A stretch of 63,569 bases of DNA, filler included, from Folioceros fuciformis (taxonomy: Eukaryota): assembly GCA_049999805.1 (NCBI GenBank). It is 10 parts of 10 records of this genome, joined end to end, with 100 filler letters (N's around TTAATTAATTAA, not from the genome) between each part and the next. Parts side by side here need not be neighbours in the genome. Positions count along the whole stretch, not along the records: positions 15,320 to 20,690 come from JBNGIO010003370.1; 9 more parts are not named here. One strand, given 5' to 3'. Every line of letters starts with the position of its first letter. The stretch's first letter is position 1. The position numbers were made by a program, and so were the translations under genes. Below the pieces are notes generated by a model. That model was not told where the DNA came from. It saw only the letters and a list, made by a program, of their open reading frames with translations, and made no database searches. Shown piece after piece: positions 9,602 through 61,622 of the stretch.

Positions 9602-10642
9602 TCAGGCTTTCCCGTTGCCCCATATAGGTTGGATATCCTCCTTAACCTTGATCAAAGGATCAACCTCCTCACTGTCCACAAGAGGGACATCCTTGGTCGA
9701 CAGCGGAAGTGGGACAGAAGACTCCACCAATTTCTGTTGGCTCTCTCGAACGTTAACATACGAGTAAATTCCCATGCCCAGCACAGCAACAACGATGCCG
9801 AAGATATTCCTCCAACTGAAAGGATTACTCAGCAGTATGTAACCAAATGCCAAGACCAAGCACGTCTTGAGGTGACCGAGCACCTGGTACGTTACCGGAG
9901 ATGTCTTGCCAATAACAAGAAAGGTGCTGAAGTTGACAGAAACTGAAATGAGGCATGAGAGCAAGATGACGAAGACAACCAGAGGGCTATAGTGAAAGGC
10001 AAACACGTTCTTCGATGTCAGCGCAGCATCCAGAAACGGGCCGGTCAAGAACAGAGTGGTGGTTTGATAAGGACAAGACTGGTACAGCAGTTGAGTAGAC
10101 GACACCTTGAATCTCTTCTGGATGGTATTGGTCATGATCTGTGCCACACAGGTGGTGAGGATGGCCAACACAGAAAGGATTAGCCCTAACAAGTTGAGCT
10201 GCAAGTCCGTGACGGTCGCAATGCCGACTCCCAGTAAGAGGACGAAGAGTGCCAGCTGCACATTTCGGCTAAAGCGCTTGTCGAGGAAAACAGTTTCCAG
10301 CAATACTGTGCAGGGAATGATGGCCAGCTTCGTCATCTGGTAAAATCCTACAGAGTTGAACCCCAAGCTGAGGTTGAGCAAGCCAATTGAGATGCCGTTG
10401 AGAATGCCGAACCCCATGACAGTCCGTGCGTCAAACGGCTTATGCTCAAATAACTTCACCGATCTGGCAATATGCAGGCCGCAGAAGGTGACCAACAAAT
10501 GCCAGCTCGTCAGCGTGGTGGCGAACTGAAAGTAGAGGCCACTGATCAAATACTTGTTGCAGATCACAATAGCCACCGACGATATGACGGACAAGGCGAG
10601 TGCGCCCGTCGTCCCGAGCTGTATCCCTGCAGTCTCCGTCAT
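9602..10642 (-). CDS. UXT: Golgi nucleotide-sugar transporter, UDP-xylose transporter (UXT)-like; single coding exon
   Basis: Uninterrupted multi-TM ORF from MTETAGIQLGTTGALALS. Contains VICNKYL, FATTLTSWHL, NSVGFYQMTKLAIIP and KTSPVTYQVLGHLKT, typical of the UXT clade of the NST/TPT family. Confidence 0.92.
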   Translation of the reverse strand: MTETAGIQLGTTGALALSVISSVAIVICNKYLISGLYFQFATTLTSWHLLVTFCGLHIARSVKLFEHKPFDARTVMGFGILNGISIGLLNLSLGFNSVGFYQMTKLAIIPCTVLLETVFLDKRFSRNVQLALFVLLLGVGIATVTDLQLNLLGLILSVLAILTTCVAQIMTNTIQKRFKVSSTQLLYQSCPYQTTTLFLTGPFLDAALTSKNVFAFHYSPLVVFVILLSCLISVSVNFSTFLVIGKTSPVTYQVLGHLKTCLVLAFGYILLSNPFSWRNIFGIVVAVLGMGIYSYVNVRESQQKLVESSVPLPLSTKDVPLVDSEEVDPLIKVKEDIQPIWGNGKA

Positions 10643-11385: not shown

Positions 11386-13096
11386 TTGAGGCAAGTGCAG
11401 ACAGTGGAATTCCCAATAATACAGGGTGATATCACGCAACATAGGTGCCAGATTAAGTCTATCCAGAAGCAGTTGCCAACATTTGTTCTCAAGCTTCATC
11501 TCCCTCAACTTCACTTGAATCTACAGAAACATCACCAAGAACAAATGGATTGCCTTCAAAACGACTTGTCCACAACTTATATGCCCAAGACGGACATCCC
11601 AAAATTGTGGGAGGGCATTATGCACTCTGTGAAGAAGGAGTTGTTGGCTGAGTGTATGCTCAACAAGGATGTCCTCATGTTACGGGATGATACCATGCAA
11701 AGAGCCTCCACCTCTGTGGATGCCAAATGTGCAACTTTGAAGCAATTTGTGTGCGAAGAACTCAAGACAATGACTAGCAAATTGGCGGTCTTAGAGCTTC
11801 AAGTTGCAGATCACATCTCCACGACAAAAGTGATTATGCAACAGGAGGTCAGCAAGTTCATTAAGGAACAAGTCCAGCCCTCAACTCCGCCTAACATATC
11901 TAATTCTCAAGAATTGCTTGCCTCGCCTTCTGATACAGTTAATGCAACTGTCATGGAATCCCAAAAGCGATTGAGGTGCTCACTTAACCTTCGAATAATA
12001 GGCTTGCAAGGTTCAGGAACTCCACGACTGGTTGTATCTGACTTCCTTGCCACAAAGCTTCATCTCCCTGGGGTTCCTTTTCAGAATGCTTGGTTAGTTG
12101 GAAGGATCCAGATCGCCTCTTGGTTTTTCTAATTCATTTCCACTCTGTTCAAGATAGGCTCCATGTGTTAAAGGCTTGTTACAAGCCTTTAACACATGGA
12201 GCCTATCTTGAACAGAGTTACCGAGCATGGGTTAGACACCTTCCCACTTTTCCCAATTTTCTTTCTACTTCTTTATTTAGGGAATATGTTTCACCAAACA
12301 TGCCTAAAACTGCATGTGGTGTGGCTTGTTTCTTTCGGTCCTCTCTCTCAAATTTTGTAACTGTGGCAAAGAAAGACCCCTTTGCGAGAGTTTTGTGGAT
12401 CAAGGTTTCTGCATCGATTCTTCCTTCTAACCGTCATCTATTCATTGCTTGCTGTTATTTTCCACCTCAAGGTTCTCTTTATGCTAGAGGCCAGCCTCTT
12501 CTGACATTTCAAGACCTCTCTGATGACTTGATGCATTTCATGCCTTTGGGTGATATCCTTTTGGTTGGAGATTCCAATGCGTGGACTTCATCCGCGCAGT
12601 CCCCTGTTTATGCACTAGATGATCAACAATAAATATTCCCGCTTGATCTAGTTGATCTTGCCTTCCAGAGAAGGACAGAGGATCCACACCAAGTCAATAT
12701 CTTTGGCAAGGCGCTTCTCAACCTTGTGGAGTCACATGGCCTACTCATCTACAATGGCCTTCCTCAATGGCACGGGAGTGAGAGAATTACGCATTGTGCA
12801 CCTTCAGGTCAACTTTCTGCTATCCTTGACTATGTCATTGGGCAACCCTCCTTTGTTTCTTCTATTCGTCAATTTTCTGTTTTTGACGTCAAGCCTTTTG
12901 AGTCTTACCATGCCTTCCTTTCTTGGCATATCCTTTTTGATAGACTTGACCCCATGCTTCAGTCCTATAAGTCTTCTAGAATTTGCTTTTCCCTTCACCA
13001 TGGCCTAGCTCCCCAATACTCCTCCTTTTTGAAAAAGTCAATTGTCGCCATCCCTCCTAACCTTCCGTTTCCCCAACAGGCCAAGGCTTTCACTTC
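11386..13096 (+). mobile_element. Decayed LINE: ORF1-like coiled coil/RRM region plus APE-type endonuclease fragments
   Basis: NLRIIGL...DFLATKLHL (ORF1 RRM-like), then VLWIKV, FIACCYFPP, ILLVGDSNA, LLIYNG, ILDYVI and SYH (endonuclease motifs) across frameshifts. Cut off at the Copia LTR. Confidence 0.8.
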
Positions 13097-15219
13097 AGTT
13101 GGAAGACTACATGCGGAAGCGTGTCTTCAATACAAAAGATAAATTTAGAATGATCAAAAATACAAACAGTTGTCTTTTTATAGGTTTCACCCCAAAGGGT
13201 GTGACCTTTCGCTAGCCTAGCTAACTAACCTAACTCTTAGGTAGATAAGCTAACATAACCTATGGTTAAATAACTCTAGTGGACTGGTACTCCTTCTAAC
13301 TCTCCCTCTCAGTCACGTAGAGGTTATGAGAGCTCTACTAGAGATCAGTGCTTAGCAAGTTTGTACTCTAGAGCTATCTACTTTAGCTCGGCTGTCAGAT
13401 CTTCCAGTCGCTGACACTGTCAAGAAGTCTGTCGATGGCGACAACCTCTACAGTAGCGCACCGGTCATGACCAGAGTAGAAGTAATACTCCAGGTACAGC
13501 TGCCCTTGCACTAGATGGAGCAAGAAGGAATATCATTACCACGTCTTCAAATTCTCTTGAGTTACATAACCACTACAATCTACAAGACCAAGTCCTTCCC
13601 TATGAAAACAGTGTCGAAACTTAGGAAGTGACTTTGTCAGAACATCAGCTACATTAAGGTCTGTAGACACATACTGAATCTTCACTAAACCTCGCTCAGC
13701 AGCATCCCTCACATAATGATGTTGGATCTCGATGTGCTTAGTGCGAGCATGGAAAACAAGATTAGCCACCATAGCAATGGCTGACATATTATCACAGTTG
13801 AGGATGGTAGGGCCCTTTTGGAGCATTCCCAGATCCTCACATAGTTTCCTTTTCCACTCAGCTTCCTTTGTGGCTTCTGTCAATGCCTTATACTCTGATT
13901 CTGTAGAAGACAGAGAGATGGAGGCTTGTTTCCTGCAAGACCAGTTAATTACTGTGGAACCAGCCAGAAAACAATAAGCAGAAAGGCTTTTGCGGGTATC
14001 AGCATCAGAAGCCCAATCTGCATCTACATAACAGCTGAGCTGCAAATGCTTCTTCCCGCTAGGTTTGTAGCAGAGACCAAAGTTAGGAGTGCCCTTAAGG
14101 TATCGCATTATCCTTTTAACTGCAACCCAGTGGTCTCTACTTGGATTCTCAGAGAATTGCGCAACTGCATTCACAGTGTTAGATATGTCTGGTCTCGTCC
14201 AGTTGCTAAGGAACATGAGAGTGCCCACTGCCATTCTGTAAGGCACACTTTCCATTTCCTTATCCTCTTCAGACTGAGAACATGACGACGAGGACAGCTT
14301 AATACCAACAGCACCTGGAGTCGCAGCTGCACGAGCATTCTTCAAATTAATTTTCTTCAGCATGCCTGCTACATATCTCCCTTGATGAAGATACATTGCT
14401 CCTGTGGATCTATCTTTATGTATGTGCATTCCTAATATATACTTAACTTGACCAAGATCTTTCATCTCAAATTCTTTACTGAGATCAGTCTTGATCTGGT
14501 TAACCAGCTCTACATTATTACCAAGAATGACTAAGTCATCCACATACAAAGCTATTAACACAAGCGAACTATCTTTTCGCAGTACATAAAGATTAGTGTC
14601 AGCTTCACTTTGCACAAAGCCAATCTTCTTGAGATATGTATCAATCCGCTTGTACCAAAGACGTGGGCTTTGTTTAAGCCCGTATATGGAACGTAGAAGT
14701 TTACACACCTTATGAGGATATTTCTTATCTTCGTAATCCTCAGGCTGATCCATATAGATTTCTTCTTCTAAATGACCATACAGAAAGGCTGTGCAAACAT
14801 CTAATTGGTAGATGGTAAGGTTAAGTTCTGCACACAGGGCCAGTAGCATCCTTATAGACGCGGCTTTGACTACAGGTGAATAAACCTGGTCACCCTGATA
14901 GTCGACTCCCTCTCGTTGACTATAACCCTTAGCGACCAACCTTGCTTTGTGTCTTATGCGGGGCTCTACCTCTTGAAACTTGGTTTTCAACACCCACTTA
15001 CATTTGACAGTAGTCCTTCCTGGAGGAAGATCCACTAACTGCCAAGTATTATTTTTAACTAAGGAATTGTACTCATCGTCAACAGCTAACCTCCACTTGT
15101 CAGCATCCGGCCTAGAGTAGGCTTCTCGGAGAGTTAGCGGATCTCCCTCTGAAAGAGCAGAGGATACCGCTAGAGAATACATAGTGGGATCAACACCAAT
15201 ATATCCAGCTTGATTAAAC
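13097..15219 (-). mobile_element. Ty1/Copia retrotransposon 3' half: RT-RNase H ORF (13536-15182), PPT and 3' LTR (13097-13301)
   Basis: KARLVAKGY, QLDVCTAFL, IYGLKQSPR, LYVDDL, YVDADWA and RTKHIEI in one open 548-aa frame. PPT GAGAGGGAG on minus at 13302-13310 abuts a 205-bp segment with inverted ends. Confidence 0.95.
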
Positions 15220-15319: not shown

Positions 15320-18300
15320 TATTCTAGCTAATAAGATTAGAATTAGTAAATTAGATATAATAGCTCTATATTATCTTATAGTAAGTAAGCTCTAAGAGAA
15401 GAGAATTAGAATAAGAGAACTAGTTTTCTTTTTTTAAACTTTCTCTCTCTATCTCTTTTAATATCTATTTTAGCTATAAACTATACTAACTCTATATTAT
15501 AGGTAATTAATAAATATAAGTAAGAGCTTTAGTAACTCTATAATAAAGGTAATATTAAAGTATTTAAAGTATATTCTCTACTAAAGCTACTTTTTATTAA
15601 TATATAGCTTTACCTTATATACTAGTTTACTTATATATTTATTAAGTTCTCTAGTATATTTAATATATTTATCTATAGCTCGAGTATAAAAAGTAACTCT
15701 TTAGATATTAGCTATATTACTAAGTTACTTACTTATAATTACCTTCTCTTTAATTATACTAATAAACTAAACTATTAGGCTATTATTATTAAATTCTATT
15801 AGGTAATAGTAACTTAATATAGACTTAACTAGACTAAGAATTTCTAGTATAATATATATAATATACTATATAATAAAGTATATAATAATTAGTTTAAAGC
15901 TATTTAGTTTCTAAATAACTTTAAGTAGTAAGCTTTCTTTAATCTAGATAAACTTTTTAATAAAAACTATCTAGATAAAGTATAGNNNNNNNNNNNNNNN
16001 NNNNNNNNNNNNNNNNNNNNNNNNNNNNNNNNNNNNNNNNNNNNNNNNNNNNNNNNNNNNNNNNNNNNNNNNNNNNNNNNNNNNNCTCTAAAGATATATT
16101 TTATTACTAGAGAAAGACTTTAAATTTAGAGAAGAAGAGAAAACTTTTAAATAAAAAGAACTATTTCTATATTCTAACTTTCTTTTCTTTCTTTCTACCT
16201 TTATTACTACTTATATCTTTTAGATATTATCTAGTTTTTATTTTCTAATCTCTTCTCTTCTTCTCTTCTCTAATATATATTATTACTATTAGCTATATTT
16301 TCTAACTAATTTATCTAGGTATTAACTTATACTTATTCTATACTATTTATTAGTTTAATTATAAATAGATAATTATTATTATAGCTACGCCTATACTATA
16401 CTTATTCTATAACTTTACTAGTATTCTCTTCTTTATCTACTTACTATTTAATAATAACGTTACTTAGTCTTATATTAAGTAATAATATAGTAATTTACTT
16501 AAAAACTAGAAAAGCTATAATTTTCTACTTAATCTATATAAGCTAGATTATAATAGAAATCTAGTATAATCTAAGAAAGAATAATTTATATATACTATAA
16601 GTACTTTTAAATACTATAGATACTTATCTATAATAAATATAGACTAATATAGTCTAATTCTTACTTACTTTTAAATAAAGTTTATAATTTAACGTAACTA
16701 TAATTCTAACTATATTATTAGTTCTATTAGTAAATTCTATACTATTAGGTCTTCTATATTAAAGGTTTATAAGGTAAATATTATAATAGAGAATAATTAT
16801 AGCTAGTAGAATATCTATAATAATATAGTTACTAAGTATACTTTAAAGAACTCTATTATAAATAGTACTAGTAATACTAGGTTTTTAAATAGTTATAGCT
16901 TCTATATCTTAAATCTTAGAGCTATTAGTCCTATACTCTACTTTACTAGAGATATCTATACTACTAAGGTTAATATTCTTCTAAATACTATATAGTATTT
17001 ATATAATAGTCTTTATTATAGTTCTAGATATAGCTTAGCTAATAAAGAGTCTAGCTTAGCTAGTAGTATAGACTTAAATAATAAAGAAGATAACTATACT
17101 ACTAAAGAAGAATAGAAGTATTAGAAAAAGAAGTTACTTAAGTTACTTCTATACTATACTTATTTTAGAAAATAAGAATATAAGAAATAGCTATATAAGC
17201 TAATAGAAAATATCTAAAAAAACTTCTCTCTTATTTACTTAGCTACTTATAAGAAGATTTTCTAGAATAAGATAGTTTTTAATCTTAGTACTATTAAGCT
17301 AGTCTATATATTTATCTTATTCTCTAAGCGGATTTAAGCTATATTCGCTTTAATTACTAATTAAGTAGATAGCTATAATAAAAAGATATTAGTATTTATA
17401 TAGAATCTATAGAAATAGTAGCTTTATATTATTCTTCTTTACCTATTAAACTATAATACTAATACTATATTAGCTACTATAAAATTAATAGAGAAAGATA
17501 AGGCTATTACTAAGTTTTAGAAGCTTCTAAAGTACTAAATTTAACTTAGATATTATAACTAGTTAAAGATAAATTTAGAGATATTAGTTTTATCTTACTA
17601 TATAAACTTTAGTTTAAATCTCTATATAATATATTATAATATTTACGTACTATCTTCTCTACTATTATACTTTATCTAGGTTTAGTCTATTAGATAGATT
17701 ACCTAGTTTAGATAGGCCTTTAACTATCTAGTAATTATATATATTATTAAGCGAATATTTAATATAGTATAATATAGCTTTCTAGCTAGTAATATATTAT
17801 TTATAATTATAGTACTAACTTATAATATTAAGATACTAGACCTAAATACTATAGATATAGTAGATTTACTATTTATCTTATTTATAGAGCTTACTTATTT
17901 CTATAGCTATAAAAATACTTTTATTAATAACTATAGCCTAAGCTACTTTAAGATAGATATAGTAGAGCTTATTATCTATAATCTCTTTATTAATAATAAG
18001 TTTATTTTTATTCTTAATATTATTCTTAGTTTATTTAAGTTTATTACTAAGAAAACTATAAGTATAAATTTCTACTAAGTTTTAAAAGTATAGCTATTAT
18101 AGACTAGATTTAAAGTAGTAGTTATTTTACTTAGTATACTTAAGAAAAGTAGTATAAGTAAGATAGACTCTAGTATATTAATATCTAGCTTATATATAAT
18201 ACTATTAGGTTATTAGAGAAAGAAACCTATATTATAGAATACTACTTTAGATAGTAGTTTACTAGCTAGCTTATTCTTATTTATAAGTTCTATAGTTTCT

Positions 18301-20690
18301 AATATTAGTAATAATTTTATTAAGAAGTATAAGTTAAAAGCTTTAGATAAAGTAGATAATAATATTAAGAGTAAAGATAATAATAGTAGTAAGAAGAAGA
18401 AAAAATAGAAGTAGAACTAGAAAATAAGTAGAGAATATTAGTAGAAGAATCTTTCTAGAGAACGTAAGTCTAGCTATATTAAATAGTAAGAGAAGAAAAA
18501 AAATATAGATATATCTAAAGCTATAGATAATAAGAGAGCTTAATTTCTAGATATATCTTTAGAAACTTATATAAGTATATAGAATAGAAAAGTAGTTAAA
18601 TAAAAAGAATCTATTTCTATTTATTAAAGCCTTCTCTTTTTTCTCTATTATACTATATAAGTTAGAATTAAAGTAGACTAGAGAATAAAATAGATTATAG
18701 CTATAGCTATATAGCTTAGGATATAAAATTATATTATAAGTATATTATAAAACTATTCTTATTTCTTCTATATTATATATAACTTAATATAAATATTTTA
18801 TATCTTAAGTTTTATTTATATAGATATATATACTTTATATATTACTAGTTTAGTATTTATACTCTACTTTTATAATTATAGTTTATAGTCTTAGAAGATA
18901 AATATTTTCTAAAACTTCTAAATTTAAAGTAGAGTAAATTATAGTATAAAGTATAAGAATATACTTTATAACTATTAATTAGATTATAGTATTTTAATAT
19001 ACTTTTATTTTATATAGTCTAAAAGATATATATTATTACTATTTAATATATATTAAAATTATAATATTATTAAAGTTTTACTATAAGTAGAGTAATATTT
19101 CTTTAAGACCTAAAAGTTACTAATATATTAAAATATTATATTCTCTTCTATTAAAAATTACCTAGTATATTAAGTAAATAAGAAAGAGAAAAGAAGTTTT
19201 AAGATAAGAAAACTATTACTATATCTAAACTTCTCTTTTTCTTTTTCTAGTCTTTTCTTTTCTTCTAATAGTTTATAAAAGAGTAGCTATATTATTAATA
19301 AATAAAGTTTATATTATAAGTAAAAGTAGCTACTTTTTATAGTAGTAAATAAGTAATAAACTATAGTAGTACTTCTTTACTTTACTTTCTAATTATAGAG
19401 AAGACCTATATAGATAACTATATTCTTCTCTACTAAGTTAACTAGAATATCTTATAATAACTAATATAGAGACTTTTAATTTTTATCTTATAGCTATTTT
19501 ATAAGCTAATATATAAACTATAGATACTATATTTAATATTAAAATTAAAGAGTATTTATCTTTATACTATATACTTTTACTTCTATATTATTAAGAATAT
19601 AAAAGTATAATATAATAAGAGCTAGCTTATTAAGAGTATTAGTATACTTTTATTACTATCTAGTACTAGTCTAACTTAGTAGATAGACTTTAAGATAGAT
19701 ATTAGAGTATTTCTTCTTATATATTTCTTTCTAAGAAAGGTAAGATTTACTAATAAATATATAATTAATATATTTAGATATTATATTTAAAAATTATATA
19801 GTTACTTTCTAAGTTATAAGTATATATCTTTATAGATATCTATTCTAACTAGCTATTATTCTATATTAATATAGTAGTATAGAAGTAGAATATATATTTT
19901 ATTTTTAAGTTCTTTATACTAGATAATAAGTTATACTTAAATAGAGAGTAGATAGTAGTAGAGTATCTACTAAAAATTATAGAGTAGTCTTACTATAAAG
20001 AATAAGACCTAAAGTATATATAGCTAAATATATATTATATAATAGGTCTAGATATATACTAGGTATTTATATCTATATAGTACTATATTACTAAGTTTAT
20101 ATTATATCTTAATCTAGAGAATATAACTAACTTATTATTTCTAGATAAAGATTATTAAAGTATATTAAATAAGATAAAAAGTCTATAAAAAGTAGTATAA
20201 TATATAATATTTATCTATAAGTAAGAGTAACTATATTATATACTATTTTTAATATAGGTATTTAGAAGCGTAGTTAGAACTATATAGGTAGAGTTATTCT
20301 AGTAGTTAAGAGAAGTTATAGAGCTAGTATAGCTATACTAGGTTAGATTAATATTAACTATCTTCGTATATAATATACTATAGAAGTTAAGTAGAAAGTA
20401 TATTCTAGTACCTAAAGAGCTAAAGAAGAGTATTACTAAAGTACTATAATTAGAGTAGTATACTAACTATAGAGATACGTAGATAAAGTATATATAGCTC
20501 TAGATAGAATATATATCGTAGTATAATATATCGTTTAATATTAACTAAGACCTTAAGACTATATAGTAAGAGATTATTATAGATAAGGTAGTAGTAATAA
20601 TAGATTACTTATAGAGTAGATTCTTATATAAATTTACAATAAATAAAAGTCCTATTCTTTACTATAGCTAGTAAAATAGTAGTATATATA
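15320..20690. other. RIP-mutated AT-rich contig, probably of ascomycete fungal origin
   Basis: By eye, no TG and only one CA (20637) in ~5.2 kb. CG and CC are rare, C survives mainly as CpT (G as ApG), TA is everywhere, and the ORF track is empty here. Confidence 0.9.
15321..17790 (+). pseudogene. RIP-inactivated SNF2-family (SF2) helicase/ATPase gene with introns
   Basis: Reversing transitions gives ordered motifs: ILADExGIGK (att cta gct aat aag att aga att agt aaa, 15321-15350), LDEAQ (cta gat aaa gta tag, 15971-15985), TATP (ata gct acg cct, 16381-16392), KILVF (17383-17397), GLNL (agt tta aat ctc, 17611-17622), QSIGRITRFGQ (17683-17715). The 3' end is approximate. Confidence 0.8.
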
Positions 20691-22192: not shown

Positions 22193-24809
22193 ATGAAAGG
22201 GGGACGCACCTACGGATCATTTCCTAGAACGTTAGAGGTTTGGGGATGGTCGAAGACGACGTCGAAGTGAAAAAGATTGAAGCATCTGTTTGTCGAGGAG
22301 GTCACTTGGGATGTTGTGTGCTTGCAGGAACATAAGCTTTGTGCTTGCAGGAACATAAGCTTTGTGCTTGCAGGAACATAAGCTTTCAATGGAGCATATC
22401 CAGAAAGTGAAGAAAATCTTCCTCCCAGGTAGAATAGAATGGGTGGCGGTTAGAGCAGAGGTTGCAAGAGGGGGAGAATGGTCGACCCAGCATGTGTCTG
22501 CGACCCATGGAGGAGTGTCCATTACTGTTCACCCAGAACAAGCTCACAACATCCTAGAATCGGAGCAGGATGAGGGTGGAAGGTTTGTGTGGTTGGTGTT
22601 GTAGACACTGCAAGGCCCCATCGGAATCTGCAACATTTATGCGCCTAATGCTGCCTCTGAAAGGAGTAGTCTTTGGCGTAGACTGGGAGAGTAGTTGGAT
22701 GATCAGATCCTGTGGATGCTGACTGGTGACTTCAACTTTGTGGAAAGACGAGAAGACATTAGAGGAGATAGCCCAATTGATGTTCGGGCGGTGCCCATGT
22801 CTTGGCAGGAGTTGAGAGATACGGTTTTGGCGGTGCAGGACCCGTGGTTGGCCCTCCTAGCGCACCGCCATCCACAATCCTTGATGTTCAGGTGGTCCAA
22901 CCAACAACACCAGAGTTTGGGAGCGCGTAGATTGGACAGGTTCTATATTCCCTCAGGATGGCTATCCTTTGTGTAGCCGTATAGTATTCTCGCTGGTACG
23001 ATTCTATCCCATCACCACCCAAGCAGTTTGCATTTGAGTCTTGCTCCGAACTCTCAGCTTCAAAGGAGACATGCAAGATTTTCGGATGAACACATCCTTA
23101 CTAAAGGTAAAAGGTGTACTTGATGATATCAAGAACATCTGGCAAGGAGTCAAACAGGGACCAGAACATGCGGCGCTTAAATTGATCTGTACTGACAATA
23201 AAGCAACTAGGTACTTGAGGAGGCGCGGGGTTCAACGGGCAAAACAGCAATGCCAACAAGAATGTTTCTTGAGGGAGCAGCTTTGCTGGTTACAAAGAGC
23301 TTGTGAAGACCGGTACTTCACAAATGAAGAAGAAGCCAGAAAGATTGAGGTGCAATGTGCTCTAGCCAAGTTGGAAGAGGATAGGGCCAGAGGCTGGTTC
23401 AAACGGGCTAAGGTTAAGTGAGTAAGGGAAGGAGACGGCCCTTCTAAATTCTTCTTCGATAAGGTGGCTTCTAACCGGCATAGGACGCGAATTCCTGCCC
23501 TTCCTGATGTGCAAGGTGTGATGCAGGATTCGCTACAAGGTTTTAAAAAAACCTCATTACCTTATTCTTTGTGGAAATTTTCTCCAGTGTGGGGAAGATG
23601 GCTGGGTGGGAGCAGCTTTGGTCAGCTACATATGGTTCGCTCTCGGCTAAGGTTTCCGATGACCAATGCAAGATAAGGATAAGCCAATAACTGCAGAGGA
23701 GGTGTTTCAGGCTCTCAAGGGGATGCCGAGGGGTAAATCCCTAGGTCATGATGGTATCCCACCCGAGTTCTTGCTTTGGGGGTGGGAGTTTATGGAACCT
23801 TTATTCATGGAGGCGGTGAACATGATCTAGGAAGATGGTAGCATGAGACATTGGTTCAATATGAGGGTCTTCTCCTTGCTCCCTAAGCAAGATGCCAGTC
23901 TGTCTATATCCAACTAGCGCCAAATCACCTTGCTCACTCCACTTATAAGGTAATTGCTAAAGTTCTGGCCAATCGCATCAAACCCTTTCTGGATGACTGG
24001 ATAGAGAAGGAGCAGCAAGGGTTCATTCAAAATAGGTCCATACTGGACAACCTTCTTCTCCTACGAGAAGCTAAGTACAATATTAAGGTACAGAAGAAAG
24101 CTGCCATCTTCATTTCCCTTGATTTTTACAAGGCGTACGACTCCATTGAGTGGCACTTCTTATGGAGATGCCTACGTAGTTTTGGTTTCGGGAATAATTT
24201 CTTTAGATGGATAGCCATTATGTGTGAAGACGCAGGGGCCAAGGTGGTTGTCAAAGGGTCTTTTACGGAGCGTTTTGGCATTCATTGTTCGGTACGTCAG
24301 GGGTGCCCCCTAGCTCCGTTCTTATTTATTATTGTTACTGACTTCTTTCTCCGAACAATTAAGCAAGACCCAGCAGTGGAAGGTATTCGGAATCCAGACG
24401 GAACGTAGCTAAGGGTATCTGCGTTTGCAAATGATACTCTCCTCTTTTCCTCGGCTGAGGAGGCTTCATTGAAGGTTTTGTTCTAGCAGGTTAAGGTATT
24501 TGGGGAGTTATGGGGTTGCCAAGTTAATTGGAACAAGACTTGCATGATGTGTCTGCACATGGAAGGGGAGCTTCCGCAATGCATCAACCGCATTAGGCGT
24601 GTGACTTTGGGTTCCACCCAGAAGTACTTGGGGCTTCCCTTTCAAGAGGGGGAGGAGAATGGTGAGATAGGAAAATATGTGTGCCTTAGATTCCTTCGAA
24701 AAGCGTCGAGGTTGCAGCTATTGGAGCTTAACCTGGCAGGGAGGCTGGTGGTGATTAACCATATCCTTACAGCCTCGCTTTGGTATTACTTGTTCTTGTG
24801 GTCCCCCTC
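22193..24809 (+). mobile_element. Decayed L1-clade LINE ORF2 (endonuclease + reverse transcriptase)
   Basis: IIS*NVRG, CLQEHKL, NIYAP, TGDFN, RLDRFY (endonuclease); GHDGIP, LLPK, YKVIAKVLANR, QQGF, LDFYKAYD, RQGCPLAP, AFAND, KYLGLP (RT). Many stops and frameshifts. Confidence 0.93.
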
Positions 24810-27381
24810 TGTAAATAAATAAGCGGAAGCTATTCTACTATGAACATACGAGTGCACAAAAATGATAAATTAAATCAAAGGCAATGTGTGTTTATATACA
24901 AAATTATCTGTGTAATCCTAAGTTACGAAAAGGTATATTACCCTAAATTATTTAACCCAAGGGCAGGGTAAAAAGACCCTATTTACTAACACTCCCTCTT
25001 AACCCATCCGTAGGGTTAAACAGCAGAGCATCTAATAAAAATGGGCTGTGCGGACACAACGTTCAGGCGCAAAGCAAGCTCCTCGCGGCAGTCTCTTCAT
25101 ATACCTCTGTATGCATCATGGAAGCCACGCCTGCGACCTGGTGCCTACTTATGGAGCTGATGGCGACCATCGCCCTAACCATCTTCGTGGTGATAGTGGT
25201 AGAGAGCACGATGGCTCGTAGATAACGATAGATATGCTTAACAGCACCCCAGTGTACTCGTCCAGGTGCCTTCAAGAATTGTGACACAATGCTGACAGAG
25301 TAGCTAATGTCAAGACGTGTCCAATTGGCAAGAAAAATTAAGCACCCTACAGGCTGCATACGGAACTCCAGCCATTGACTCCTCATCAATAGCATTTTGC
25401 GGAGACTGCTCACAGGTCAGCTTTTCCCCCACTGCTGTTGGTGTAGACACGAGCTTTGCAGAGTCAAGATGGAATCGCTTCAAAATCTCTTTGATGTACT
25501 TTGTCTGATGCAGAATCATGGTGCCTTGTGCCCTGTCTCGTAGAATCTGGATGCCGAGACAGAAGGCAAGGGGACCCTGATTTGTCATCTCAAATTCTGA
25601 TCGGAGGAGAACTTTGACTTTGTCCATCTGATCAGGGTGATTACTCAACAAGATCGCATCATCAACATAAAGTGCCAGAATGACGAAGAAGCCATCAGAA
25701 GCAAGGTAAAAAACATTGGAATCTACTGGGGACTGTACAAAGCCGTGCTTCTTGAGAAATTTCATGATCCTTTTATACAATGCACGAGGGCTCTGCTTGA
25801 GCCCATAAATCGTTTTTAACAGTTTACAGACCTTGTCAGGAAACTGCTTGTCGACGAACCCTTCAGGCTGGACCATGTACAAAACTTCTTCAAGCTCACC
25901 GTGAAGAAAGGCCGTACACACATCCATCTGATGCAATTCGAGATCAAATTGGGCAGCTATAGCAAGTAAAATCCTTACAGAAGGCGGCTTCACGACAGGC
26001 GAAAAAGTGTCTCCATAATCAATGCCAGGTATCTATGAAAACCTCGGGCTACTAAGCGTGATTTGTATCTTGCTATGGTGCCATTTGCCTTTAATTTCGT
26101 CTTGAAAACCCACTTACACGTGATGGGTTTCCTACTAGGTGGCAGGTCGGTCAACTCCCAAGTGTTGTTCTTTACAAGGGAGTTGTACTCGTCATTGATA
26201 AATTTCGCCAATGCTTGCCATCAGGTCTCTCAAGTGCTTCCTTATAGCTCTGAGGATCAGGTCGAACATCTGGAACATGAACGTCGGCAACATGTGCGGA
26301 GGATCTGCGAAAATCAATTGACTGATAGGGAGGTTCCTGCCAATCTGCCCGTGCTCGTCTTTCACGAACAGGATATCTAGGGGATGTATCCCCCACTGCA
26401 GGGGTAGGAGGTGCTCCCTCTTCATCTGGATGATCTGATTTTGGATGCAAATCAGCAGAACCAGCAGACTCATGAGCACTGTCACTGTCCATGCTTGCAG
26501 AATCCTCAAAGATGTGACTATCCACATCTGATCCAGGGTAAGCCCTTTCAGCACCATGGTCTGAATTATTATCATCATGTCCTACAGGTGCTGCATCAGC
26601 AGCAAAATGATCATGTGCTGTTGCATGCAAATTGGGATGCTGGGGGTTTGGAGGATTAAGAATCTCATCCACAGCTGCGGAATCACCAGCATCTGGTGCC
26701 TCACCATCTGACTGAGGATATGAAACAGGTACCTCTAGAGAACTGGGGTCAACCAAACTGCTGTCAGTGGAACTACTATCAGCATTGCCCGTTATATCCT
26801 TATCTGAATGTGGGAAGGTGAGCTCCTTGAATACAGCACTACGTGATGATGTTATCTTGGAGGTAACTGGATCATAAAGCTTGTACGCCTTAGACTCTTC
26901 TGAGTATCCAACAAACACCAGCTGTCTAGAGCGATTATCTAACTTCTTCCTCTTTGCTTCAGGTATGAACGCAAAAGCAGGAGATCCAAACACCTTCAAG
27001 TGCAGAAGACTAGGCTTTCGTCCCCAAAAGGCCTCATAAGGGGTTTTCCCTGGCAGAGCTGTCGTCACCACTCGATTCAACAGATAAGTTGCAGTGACAG
27101 CGGCCTCTGCCCAATATGTTTTTGGTAAACCTGAATAGGACAGCATGCTCCTGAACATACCCATGATGGTCTGGTTCTTACGTTCAGCGACCCCGTTTTG
27201 CTGCTGCGTGTAGGGGACTGAAAGTTGGCGGATTATTCCATACTGTTTGAATAGCTCATCAAAATTGTTACCAATGAACTCTCCACCGTTATCAGTCCTG
27301 CAGCACTTGACCAGGTGACCCGTCTGACGTTGAACCATAGGGATCCAGGCAGCAATCTGCTCATATGCATCACTCTTGTAT
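24810..27381 (-). mobile_element. Ty1/Copia retrotransposon: integrase, frameshifted RT, PPT and canonical TG...CA 3' LTR (24810-24991)
   Basis: RTDNGGEF and QQNGVAERKN (integrase); QMDVCTAFL, YGLKQSPR and LYVDDA (RT). LTR TGTAAATAAAT...TTTACTAACA followed by CTCCCTCTT (PPT on minus). Confidence 0.95.
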
Positions 27382-33487: not shown

Positions 33488-35691
33488 CTATGAACTTTTG
33501 TCATAACCATCAAATGAACCTCGCTCTCTAAGCAGTTGTTTGGCCCTCTCCAACACTGCGAAAAATATGGAGCCTCCAATACCAATCCACATGACTCTCG
33601 GGCCAATTCCCTGCGCGAAAACCTTAGCGTTTTCAAACCAACAAGGCAGAGGACGCAAATGAACCTTGAAACTCAAAAGTCACCTTAAGTAAAGCACCCG
33701 CTCCCTCTTCTTTCACAATCTCCGACACGCAATGCTGAATTCCCCGGTAGTACCCTCGAGATCCCTGTATGAACCATAATCGTGACATCAGCACTGGTAT
33801 GCACAGAGTCCCTGAACCCCACCTATCAAAGAAAACACTATCCGACGAAATCTCTCTGACCTGAACCATCAATCGAGTCTTAATAACGTCAAGAGGCGTT
33901 GTGACTGCACCGGTTATAGCTCCTGCAAGACAATAGGACCTCGAATCATTGAAACGGGCAATATATACCCATTTCTTATGTGGCCGGATCTACATTCTGC
34001 TTCTGCACAGACGACAAGATTGCAGCCGAACTTGCTATAATGCACCTGACAGAGCGCCAACAACTGCCACTTCTGGATCCCTTAGTTCCCTTTTGACCTG
34101 CGTGCCACCATGGTTTTCAAGCCTCACAAAAGCTTGACGGAACAAATAGGTACTCAACATTGCATGCCGTTGTTGTTTGTACTTACCGTTCTGTTCAGTG
34201 CTAGTTTCATCTGCTCGTAAATGCAGAATTGTAAGGCGTCAAATGGCAAGTCCCTCAACAGAAAGGCACCAAATCCCTGGAGGCAAGTACATATCAACGA
34301 GCTGAAACCAAACCCATGGCACATTAACCCTTGCTTGCCTAGCTTCCACAGGCACATACCGCATATAGACCTCGAACCCCCTCCCTTTTAATAATCTGCT
34401 GAACTGCTGTAACAGCCGAGTTGAACTGTCCAGTTTGAATTCTTTGCTTGATGACCTACAGGAGGTAAACTATGGCCGTCTTACGGCAGGATTTCGGAGT
34501 CTGGAAACAGATAAGGACTTCCAAAAAGTGATATCTAACCTCTGTGGGTACCCGGACAAGGGAGGCTGCGGCACCGCCTGCTGCTCCAGCAGCCTACGTA
34601 TTAGAGGATGGATCAGTAGAAGTCACCCGAAGACTGAAATAAGAATCTAATGCAACTCCCCAACCTTAGCTCATTTTGATACTCAAGAGCATCACGGACA
34701 TAGATTATCGTACCAGATGGGCAAGAGGTGTCAGGTGATCTGGAACAATCTCCAAAAATTTACGCTTCAGAGGCTCGTAAACACCAACGAAAATGGCTGA
34801 AGCTCTGTTATCACAGGCAGGGCTGGCTGTTAGTCACTGGGCAAGTTTTCAGAAACTGCAGGCAGACGGAACTTTCACAAGGTTGACATCATTTAGCAAG
34901 GTAATCGGATGCACTCAGGCACGCTATTTTTCTGCAGCAGGAATAAAAATGAGATGCACAGAAACGAGCTTTGAAGAGATACACACGGAAGGACTCCAGC
35001 AAGATTGCCTTGAAGACCAGAGTACAATCCCTTGAATTGAATTTTTCCTCCAGCACGAGCCGCCTGCACAACATCAAGGCTTTCCAAATCCAACACCCCC
35101 TGAAACGGAGAAGGACCACACTGCGATATCGTCAACCTTTTACAGACCTGCAGGCGTGTCTTGATTGTATCAATAGGGTAAAGAGCTGTCTCGACTACAA
35201 CACCAGCAGTAGCTCCTGCAACCGCTCCCTCTGATGATATGAAGCGAGATCTCATGTATCAAAACATGCAATATTGCCATGACACATTACCAGTGACACA
35301 GCAAGAGCTCGCCTAGTCCCAGGTCACGCAATGCAAGCTCACCCAAGACAAGCCTAAAGAAGTTGGGGGGCTTCTGCTGCTCTTCAGCAACAGTCAGTGA
35401 AACGAGTTGCACACAGGACCCCACTTGCCGTGTATTTTTCCGCCGTCTCGTAACGTACCCATTTCTATCCGTCTACAAGACAACACCTCAAAAAATGCAT
35501 CAGGACAGGGACACGAACACTGACAGAGCCCCGTGAGCTCAACAGCGAGAACACAGACTGTCGGTCGCGCTCACATCACCGGGGGAGCTCGAAACAGCCA
35601 TGGGATGCGTCTGATGCATCCCAAAGTGGAAATCCCCCAACTTCCCGTCTCGGCCACGGGAGTGCGAGATTCTGAGTAGTGAAGCCGCCAT
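33488..35691 (-). CDS. SAMC: Mitochondrial carrier family protein, S-adenosylmethionine carrier (SAMC1/2)-like
   Basis: Multi-exon: ALYPIDTIKTRLQ, KGLYSGLQGNLAGVLP, RVPTEV, FLLRDLPFDALQFCIYEQ, TTPLDVIKTRLM, GIGPRVMWIGIGGSIFF. Start codon (MAASLLR..., transit-peptide-like) is uncertain. Confidence 0.9.
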
Positions 35692-60512: not shown

Positions 60513-61622
60513 ATGGGGCGAGCTACTGCGCCATTTCTGGTGGTGGTGGCCTTTTCGGTCTTTGTGGCGACTTACAACACCGTGAGCATGATCTCGAACT
60601 ACTATCAGCATGCGGTCTTGGAGTCTGATGACGCGGATGTGTGGTCGGGGAGGAGGATGAATTCCTTTTTTGACCCGGTGGTGAAGATCCCTGAGAATGT
60701 ACTGAATGCTGGGAAGAAGAAACGGTTGTTTCATGTGGCTGTGACGGCCAATGACTCGCCTTACAACCGATGGCAGTGTCGGATCATGTATTATTGGTAC
60801 AAGAAGTTTAAGGACCATCCGGACTCTGAAATGGGAGGCTTTACAAGGATATTGCATGATGGAAAGCCCGACGGAGTGATGGAGGAGATCCCCACGGTTG
60901 TGGTGAACCCTCTTCCCCCGGGGGAGGACCGAGGGTATGTGGTGCTCAACAGGCCGTGGGCGTTTGTTCAGTGGCTCGAACAGTACCCTATTGAGGAAGA
61001 GTATATCTTGATGGCCGAGCCTGACCACATCTTTGTTAGGCCTTTGCCGAATCTGGCCACAGAGGAGATGCCTGTTGCTTTTCCCTTTTTCTACATTGCA
61101 CCGGAGAAGAATGAGGAGATTCTGCGCAAGTTTTTTCCAAAGTCCAGAGGCCCTATCACTAAGATAGACCCCATTGGTAACTCCCCTGTTATCATCAAGA
61201 AGAGTCAGCTGCAGAAGATTGCTCCTACCTGGAAGACTGTGTCCATGGCCATGAAGGATGACAAAGAAGCAGATAAGGTGTTCGGGTGGGTTTTGGAGAT
61301 GTACGGCTATGCCACCGCTTCTGCCCTGCACAATGTGTCCCATGTTTTGCGAAAGGATTTCATGCTGCAGCCCCCTTGGGATACCGAACTCGGCGACGCC
61401 TACATAATCCACTACACGTATGGCTGTGACTACGACCTGAAGGGCAAGCTGACCTACGGAACAATTGGAGAGTGGCGATTTGACAAGCGTTCATTTACTG
61501 GCGGGGCTCCCCCCAAGAACCTGCCTCTGCCACCCCCTGGCGTTCCTGAGACTGTGGTAACTCTTGTCCGGGCGGTGAATGAGGCAACAGCTAACATTCC
61601 AGGATGGCAGGAAGGAGCATGA
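60513..61622 (+). CDS. HPAT: Hydroxyproline O-arabinosyltransferase (GT95, HPAT/RDN1-like); single coding exon
   Basis: Type II signal anchor, then FHVAVTA, WQCRIMYYWY, MGGFTRILH, YVVLNRPWAFVQWL, LMAEPDH, IDPIGNSP, FGWVLEMY, IIHYTYGCD and WRFDKR. Confidence 0.96.
   Translation: MGRATAPFLVVVAFSVFVATYNTVSMISNYYQHAVLESDDADVWSGRRMNSFFDPVVKIPENVLNAGKKKRLFHVAVTANDSPYNRWQCRIMYYWYKKFKDHPDSEMGGFTRILHDGKPDGVMEEIPTVVVNPLPPGEDRGYVVLNRPWAFVQWLEQYPIEEEYILMAEPDHIFVRPLPNLATEEMPVAFPFFYIAPEKNEEILRKFFPKSRGPITKIDPIGNSPVIIKKSQLQKIAPTWKTVSMAMKDDKEADKVFGWVLEMYGYATASALHNVSHVLRKDFMLQPPWDTELGDAYIIHYTYGCDYDLKGKLTYGTIGEWRFDKRSFTGGAPPKNLPLPPPGVPETVVTLVRAVNEATANIPGWQEGA

Follow-up and report, generated by a model that had tools for sequence, protein, structure and literature searches.

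Within the 63,569-nucleotide stretch analysed here (the window), which was taken from the Folioceros fuciformis assembly GCA_049999805.1, a scaffold of 5.4 kb carries the remains of a gene that standard annotation cannot see. We conclude that this relic is very probably a defunct gene copy that encoded a divergent SNF2-like ATPase in a Pleosporales-type fungus and was inactivated by repeat-induced point mutation (RIP), and that it is fairly ordinary in kind. RIP acts before meiosis as a defence of fungal genomes, changing C to T on both strands of DNA that is duplicated. Although erased for standard annotation, the gene could be recovered with full statistical support when its stop codons were read through and its codons were scored by RIP ancestry.

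The window (positions 1–63569) was put together artificially from ten small scaffolds, with linkers of the form N44+TTAATTAATTAA+N44 between them, and most of the scaffolds contain an internal 100-N gap. Scaffolds that lie side by side in it need therefore not be neighbours in a genome.

A scaffold mutated to saturation

The scaffold at 15320–20690 is RIP-mutated to saturation along its whole length. Its GC content was 0.19, its TpA/ApT ratio 1.60, and its (CpA+TpG)/(ApC+GpT) ratio 0.00, compared with 0.43–0.52, 0.69–0.89, and 1.22–1.40, respectively, in the nine other scaffolds. Dinucleotide counts (CA 1, TG 0, CG 14, CC 19, GG 23, CT 453, AG 488, TA 1265) reflected the same pattern, with surviving C found nearly always as CpT (453 of 487 C) and G nearly always after A. 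The signature was uniform along the 5.4 kb, as each of four sub-blocks contained zero or one CpA and no TpG. The longest open stretch in the six frames of the scaffold was 101 aa.

Homology identifies the relic

The original prediction had proposed an SNF2-type helicase gene hidden by RIP at 15321..17790, based on six helicase motifs in the expected order. When T is allowed to derive from C and A from G, all six motifs are found where that prediction placed them. In the following list an asterisk marks a stop codon.

15321, plus strand: motif I, ILANKIRISK, a RIP-compatible reading
15971–15985, plus strand: motif II, LDKV*, corresponding to LDEVQ of family protein P0010 and LDEGQ of homologue L005
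16381, plus strand: motif III, IATP, a RIP-compatible reading
17383, plus strand: motif IV, KILVF, as read
17611, plus strand: motif V, SLNL, a RIP-compatible reading
17683, plus strand: motif VI, *SIR*IT*FR*, a RIP-compatible reading

The predicted wording of motif II, LDEAQ, needs correction, as the homologues have LDEVQ or LDEGQ. By themselves the motif readings are weak support, because short motifs also match by chance: LDKV* occurs once on the minus strand as well, the two strands hold 15 and 17 sites compatible with TATP and 70 and 67 compatible with RxGQ, and four-residue motifs generally have 10–70 compatible sites. The proof comes from homology.

First, we used the frame at 16087–17901, with stops written as X and zero reversals, as a phmmer query against a database of 1.84 billion proteins. 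This search returned 16 proteins at E ≤ 1e-3 and 7 at E ≤ 1e-10, with a best E value of 2e-43, and the alignment was colinear from motif III to a point past motif VI. Second, we aligned the scaffold with a RIP-aware local aligner, whose score for a codon sums the probabilities that it arose by C>T/G>A changes from the codons of target-like residues. The targets were L005, an un-mutated metagenome homologue with two open reading frames (ORFs) or exons, and the family proteins P0001, P0010, P0023, P0025, and P0026. The score against the second ORF of L005 was 261.6 bits, whereas 40 codon shuffles gave 19.3 ± 1.9 bits with a maximum of 23.0 (z ~126), and the score against the first ORF (exon 1) was 69.6 bits, compared with 17.8 ± 2.1 for shuffles; the ten remaining combinations of frame and target for L005 scored 15.6–21.6 bits. 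Single-frame scores were 331 for P0001 (16375–18480), 329 for P0025 (to 18516), 324 for P0023 (to 18561), and 237 for P0026 (to 18600). In RIP-aware alignment to E. coli RapA, the plus-strand frames scored at shuffle level.

Third, among 693 codons aligned to P0001, 166 encoded the identical residue as read and 370 did so when C>T/G>A reversal was allowed, compared with 125 ± 9 for shuffled codons, and 21 of the 43 aligned stops fell on Q, W, or R. Finally, the relic was identical or RIP-compatible at all 25 invariant columns of the family (4.5 ± 1.9 for random codons) and at all 17 near-invariant columns (3.0 ± 1.5 for random codons). Thus, all 42 conserved columns were identical or could be reached by C>T/G>A reversal, and the copy had all of the conserved residues when RIP struck.

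Read in this way, the damage in the relic is exclusively of the transition type (C>T/G>A), and with every conserved family residue present and no frameshift, the copy was an intact gene when RIP hit. Stops in 16318–18650 comprised 33 TAG, 19 TAA, and no TGA codons, the pattern to be expected where every TpG is mutated and ApG is spared. A tally of sequence context for the inferred reversions gave 70% against a background of 59%, a figure that pools four non-independent alignments and is not used as support.

The gene was, as claimed, invisible to standard tools. Pfam found no family in three read-throughs of the scaffold with stops as X. A phmmer search of the read-through against the PDB found no helicase, its sole match being an unrelated IF1 chain (E 0.34), and none of 8000 candidates from a word-indexed protein search with the read-through reached E ≤ 10. 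The same word-indexed search with P0010 returned P0010 itself only. A related-locus search found no conserved stretch with nine sequences and two loci with five.

Exon-intron anatomy

By its alignments and splice signals, the relic comprises three exons and two canonical spliceosomal introns between 15321 and ~18600. The coding relic thus runs past the predicted end at 17790. Its features, and those of the scaffold that holds it, are as follows.

15320–20690 (5371 nt), no strand: RIP-mutated scaffold, bounded by N44+TTAATTAATTAA+N44 linkers
15321–15380, plus strand: exon A, with Walker A/motif I ILANKIRISKL; 0 stops in 20 codons; 5′ part beyond the scaffold edge
15381–15502, plus strand: intron 1, 122 nt, phase 0; GTAAGT ... 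ACTAAC (15485–15490) ... TAG
15503–15985, plus strand: exon B, the N-lobe portion that begins after motif I and extends through motif II; 69.6 bits against L005 exon 1; 15 stops in 161 codons
15986–16085, no strand: 100-N assembly gap (N run), which conceals the donor site of intron 2 along with the final 2–3 codons of exon B
16086–16318, plus strand: 3′ part of intron 2, at least 233 nt, phase 1; branch CTAAC at 16302–16306, AG at 16317–16318
16319–~18600 (end approximate), plus strand: exon C, with motifs III–VI, an SNF2-type long insert, and the C-terminal region; 50 stops in 761 codons
18601–20690, no strand: RIP-mutated flank without recognisable content; no Pfam family, no family match, repeats at chance level only

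The three exons together contain 65 in-frame stops in 942 codons, and the 5′ end of the relic is lost at the scaffold edge. Exon A aligned to residues 172–189 of L005 exon 1 (LLCDDVGVGKS...). Motif I lies in a different frame from the sequence that follows because intron 1, of 122 nt, comes after it. Once intron 1 was spliced out in silico, exons A and B aligned to L005 as one block of 180 residues, broken by a single-residue gap and scoring 83.4 bits compared with 14.2 ± 2.1 for 200 shuffles. L005 lacks intron 1, and its ORF is continuous there. Exon B also aligned to residues 1–121 of P0010 at 44 bits.

The residue count between motifs II and III equals that of L005 only if exon B ends inside the 100-N gap. 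Intron 2 has a counterpart of identical position and phase in L005 (1065–1370, GTATGT..TACTAAC..CAG), and the distance from the split codon to ATP is 22 residues in both the relic and L005. Exon C stays in one frame, without a frameshift, from 16319 to ~18600, and purine periodicity in that frame weakens past ~18800. The introns, one of them common to a homologue of ~50% identity, are more in keeping with a cellular-type gene duplicated at the level of genomic DNA than with a retrocopy. As a side observation, the intron that separates motifs II and III in both L005 (306 nt) and the window (at least 233 nt) is long by fungal standards.

A family of divergent SNF2-like ATPases

Intact relatives of the relic carry the motifs GVGKS, LDEGQ/LDEVQ, TATP, MIRRD, EKA.IF, NSGLNL, and Q..GR..RFGQ. 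Motifs I–VI thus occur in these homologues, across two RecA-like lobes, in the order that characterizes the SNF2 family of SF2 helicase-like ATPases, and the relic has all six in RIP-compatible form. The same order is found in the SNF2 remodellers Fun30/SMARCAD1, Chd1, CHD4, SMARCA4, ISWI, INO80, and SWR1. SNF2-like as well are the long span between motifs III and IV in P0010 (TATP at ~153, EKALLF at ~441), a MIRRD block at the place where SNF2 proteins carry LRR.K, and motif VI, Q..GR..RFGQ.

Structure comparisons gave SNF2 proteins as both the nearest solved and the nearest predicted folds. When an AlphaFold2 model of P0010 was compared with the PDB by Foldseek, the first 30 listed rows (ranks 1–31) were all entries of SNF2 remodellers, led by Fun30 (E 5e-10) and followed by SMARCA4, CHD4, Chd1, ISW1, SMARCAD1, INO80, and SWR1; one row is a chain of a transcription-coupled nucleotide excision repair (TC-NER) complex, which we take to be CSB. 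The first non-SNF2 family in that listing was Dicer, at rank 34. In a structure search of the ESM Atlas with the P0010 model, all ten rows were SNF2-rel_dom clusters, with template-modelling (TM) scores by query of 0.52–0.60. Language-model features placed the N-lobe exon near clusters of ResIII and SNF2-rel_dom.

The family also departs from SNF2 remodellers in several respects. It falls under the SNF2-rel_dom cut-off, Pfam found no accessory domain in its members, and it is known so far just from Pleosporales and from unnamed metagenome or run contigs. Its motif V (NSGLNL) is followed by SPPPS, where SNF2 proteins carry D..WNP. Helicase_C (PF00271) was detected in 12 of 15 members at E ≤ 0.1; among the 16 first matches, 7 reached E ≤ 0.01 and just 2 exceeded the 23.5-bit cut-off. 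By architecture and modelled fold, we call the family one of divergent SNF2-like ATPases, without counting it among SNF2 proteins as Pfam defines them. On these grounds the prediction of an SNF2-type helicase beneath the RIP damage holds.

Several observations weigh against our reading of the relic as a duplicated SNF2-like gene. SNF2-rel_dom (PF00176) scored only 17.0 bits on the L005 N-lobe exon (E 0.0033; cut-off 24.9), although it was still the best Pfam match of that exon, and it was found in none of 15 aligned members at E ≤ 0.1, although 13 of these start at or after motif III and so lack motifs I and II. A family profile searched against PDB sequences found no helicase and no SNF2 chain, and single exons had no match there. 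In hhalign comparisons with 18 E. coli SF2 helicases, which were not discriminating, RecQ ranked first (66%) and RapA received 6%; we read the RecQ value, which covers the C-lobe only, as reflecting the shared SF2 core. The AlphaFold2 model of P0010 had a mean predicted local distance difference test (pLDDT) score of 54.5, was confident only for ~residues 270–590, and modelled the N-lobe poorly, and TM scores by query in the Foldseek comparison were low (0.15–0.26). With respect to duplication, no second copy of the relic was found within the window, and RIP can leak from neighbouring repeats into single-copy DNA, as in Neurospora and Leptosphaeria.

Distribution and damaged relatives

The six named proteins of the family come from five organisms, all Pleosporales (Coniothyrium glycines, Dendryphion nanum, Kalmusia sp., Didymella sp., and Phaeosphaeriaceae sp.); the remainder come from metagenomes or run assemblies. 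In the public sources consulted the family has no name, its members being listed as 'hypothetical protein' only, and it is brought to light here. Clusters of intact homologues are small, with 1–3 members on 1–6 contigs, and identity to P0010 is 23–31% in this patchy, fast-evolving family. Didymella sp. has two family fragments on two contigs.

Two of the family proteins, P0003 and P0013, come from RIP-mutated copies in which a frame has stayed open. From P0001 to P0003, forward C>T/G>A was the sole explanation of 65 changes and the reverse that of 7; from P0001 to P0013 the numbers were 41 and 4, whereas pairs of intact members gave forward/reverse counts of 58/49, 65/51, and 59/64. F, L, I, Y, N, and K make up 52% of P0003 and 60% of P0013, compared with 28–35% of intact members. 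Frames of this sort, from RIP copies, inflate protein collections with pseudogene products. In addition, L006, a 77-kb fungal metagenome contig, contains two inverted partial copies of the C-lobe, at 9990–10520 (plus strand) and 12060–12490 (minus strand), which lie 1.5 kb apart between a delta-aminolevulinate dehydratase (ALAD) gene and a HET-domain gene; no element structure is apparent around them. That the family is repeatedly met in a damaged state fits a tendency to duplicate, without proving one.

Three sequencing runs, from one sample and study, contain the RIP-mutated scaffold wholly or partly (shares 0.94, 0.83, and 0.06), and no RNA run was listed. These runs may be the source sample of the scaffold and are not independent support.

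The remainder of the window

The nine other scaffolds look non-fungal, and the RIP-mutated scaffold, being in that case probably foreign to their genome, probably derives from a fungus that was associated with, or contaminated, a non-fungal sample. A full-length match (E 1.4e-127) to PF23452, the hydroxyproline O-arabinosyltransferase family, was obtained for an ORF of 369 aa on the plus strand at 60513–61619. This family is not known from fungi. It is treated as a plant enzyme family in PMC5371791, and the plant-type ORF suggests that the main genome is not fungal. A foreign-looking scaffold of this kind may mark fungal contamination in the assembly of another organism.

Open retrotransposon frames with normal RIP indices were found by Pfam at these positions.

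13539–15182, minus strand: open retrotransposon frame
23887–24405, plus strand: open retrotransposon frame
25313–25927, minus strand: open retrotransposon frame
26175–27338, minus strand: open retrotransposon frame

Their matches were to RVT_2 (Copia-type; E 3e-71 and 6e-38), to the SH3-like part of a retroviral integrase, and to RVT_1 (E 6e-25). These open frames contrast with the RIP-saturated scaffold that adjoins them in the chain. Two mitochondrial-carrier exons on the minus strand (33636–33989 and 34896–35258) are ~900 nt apart, a long intron for a filamentous fungus. An ORF with an SR-alpha N-domain scored 63 bits against the mammalian receptor and 46.5 bits against chain 5ck3, which is presumably a Chaetomium protein. 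Seven ORFs of the other scaffolds had no exact match in the protein collection, and Rfam gave no matches on the whole window.

In the flank at 18601–20690, RIP-aware alignment found no family match on either strand, and Pfam found no family in read-throughs of 18601–20688 with stops as X, in the frames with purine periodicity. Weak purine periodicity of the RNY type, which RIP leaves unaltered, is present at 20000–20650, at the 3′ end of the scaffold (20000–20400 is also cited). A minus-strand match at 20581–20180 to the N-lobe of E. coli RapA (27.6 bits) was rejected, as 2 of 300 shuffles scored as high and it lies off the frame favoured by the periodicity. This alignment is probably due to chance, a second coding relic being the alternative.

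How the gene may have died

The gene, of at least three exons and two spliceosomal introns, was intact before RIP. In the sequence of events that we favour, it would have been duplicated, as a segmental duplicate, through amplification of a gene family, or as part of a larger repeat, and RIP would have turned C into T on both strands of the duplicated copy. It is plausible that the relic was hit because it was formerly duplicated or multi-copy. The intact protein would be a two-lobed, ATP-driven DNA translocase.

The original prediction went further and placed the helicase, as core or cargo, in a large mobile element or a subtelomeric repeat. We consider it unlikely that the gene belonged in this way to a mobile or amplifying element, such as a Starship-type giant transposon, an AcademH-type helicase transposon, or a repeated gene cluster like X3X3R8 (described below), and was hit by RIP as that element multiplied. 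Small unplaced scaffolds with saturated RIP do typically represent repeats, and the one-way transition damage in P0003 and P0013, which come from other data sets, the two Didymella fragments on two contigs, the inverted partial copies beside a HET-domain gene in L006, and the patchy, fast-evolving character of the family would all fit. Amplified SNF2-like helicases also have a precedent in Pleosporales (PMC3017866). By contrast, read-throughs of the scaffold contained no domain of a transposase, a tyrosine recombinase (DUF3435 captain), or a reverse transcriptase, a weak negative because Pfam cannot see even the helicase in these 5.4 kb of saturated sequence. Nor did the scaffold contain terminal or long inverted repeats, its repeats being just short, AT-rich, and at chance level. 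The spliceosomal introns, one of them conserved with a distant homologue, resemble those of a vertically inherited cellular gene, the clusters of intact homologues are small, and the word SNF2 was absent from the Starship literature searched. The subtelomeric version fares no better, as the scaffold contained no TTAGGG/CCCTAA telomere repeats.

In a broader form of this idea, some undescribed selfish or amplifying element, or a cluster of helicase genes resembling X3X3R8, would have copied itself repeatedly and been struck by RIP, and the family would supply its signature gene. This reading would account for the RIP-mutated ORFs, the fragments, and the inverted partial copies in several genomes, and we regard it as rather unlikely. 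If the family were tied to such an element, Dothideomycete genomes would gain a further helicase-bearing repeat class.

We think it distinctly improbable that the relic was a single-copy gene, never duplicated, that was mutated by RIP leaking from adjacent repeats in an AT-rich block. Leakage into neighbouring unique DNA is on record, the window holds no second copy, and the flank at 18601–20690 is mutated to the same degree and has no recognisable content. Leakage is expected to fall off with distance, however, whereas the 5.4 kb or more affected here are mutated evenly and to completion, and relatives elsewhere are RIP-mutated as well. The last alternative, that there is no gene and that free choice of reversions produced chance motifs in AT-rich junk, draws on the many chance sites counted above and is refuted by the phmmer match without any reversal, the RIP-aware alignment, the codon comparison with P0001, and the 42 compatible conserved columns, which leave it a negligible probability.

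Comparison with known systems

The RIP-inactivated SNF2-like gene can be compared with several published systems. AcademH, KolobokH, Helitron, and Starship are fungal mobile elements with helicases or arbitrary cargo (PMC10799480). Relative to these descriptions, the scaffold has no signal of a transposase, Rep, or tyrosine recombinase and no termini. Telomere-linked RecQ helicase repeats are described for Stagonospora nodorum (X26; PMC3017866) and Leptosphaeria maculans (PMC3105345). They resemble the relic in that helicase genes are repeated and RIP-mutated in Pleosporales genomes, and they differ in that those helicases are RecQ proteins and subtelomeric, whereas the family of the relic has a predicted SNF2-type fold and the scaffold has no telomere repeat.

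By description, X3/X3X3R8 is the closest published case. The X3X3R8 repeat, described from Stagonospora (Parastagonospora) nodorum SN15, spans 26 kb and carries genes for three Rad5/SNF2-like helicases, one Rad6-like ubiquitin-conjugating enzyme, and two unknown proteins; the helicase genes were amplified and RIP-mutated to pseudogenes and were found after in-silico RIP reversal (deRIP), and several copies are intact (Hane & Oliver, 2010; PMC3017866). X3 is listed as 'Helicase', with a length of 10,673 nt and a RIP index of 0.74 (PMC2621366, Table 2), compared with 0.00 for the relic scaffold. The relic differs further in being one visible gene on 5.4 kb, a scaffold too short for a 26-kb unit, and no SNOG proteins of S. 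nodorum were present among the 16 + 9 family matches. The likeness, again by description, lies in a Pleosporales fungus with an SNF2-like helicase killed by RIP and made visible through RIP reversal. The original prediction had called its element possibly undescribed; this applies to the protein family, which is unnamed, but not to RIP-hidden SNF2-like helicase repeats in Pleosporales, which were published in 2010 (PMC3017866). As matters stand, the relic adds another RIP-inactivated gene duplicate to a kind that has been known since that year.

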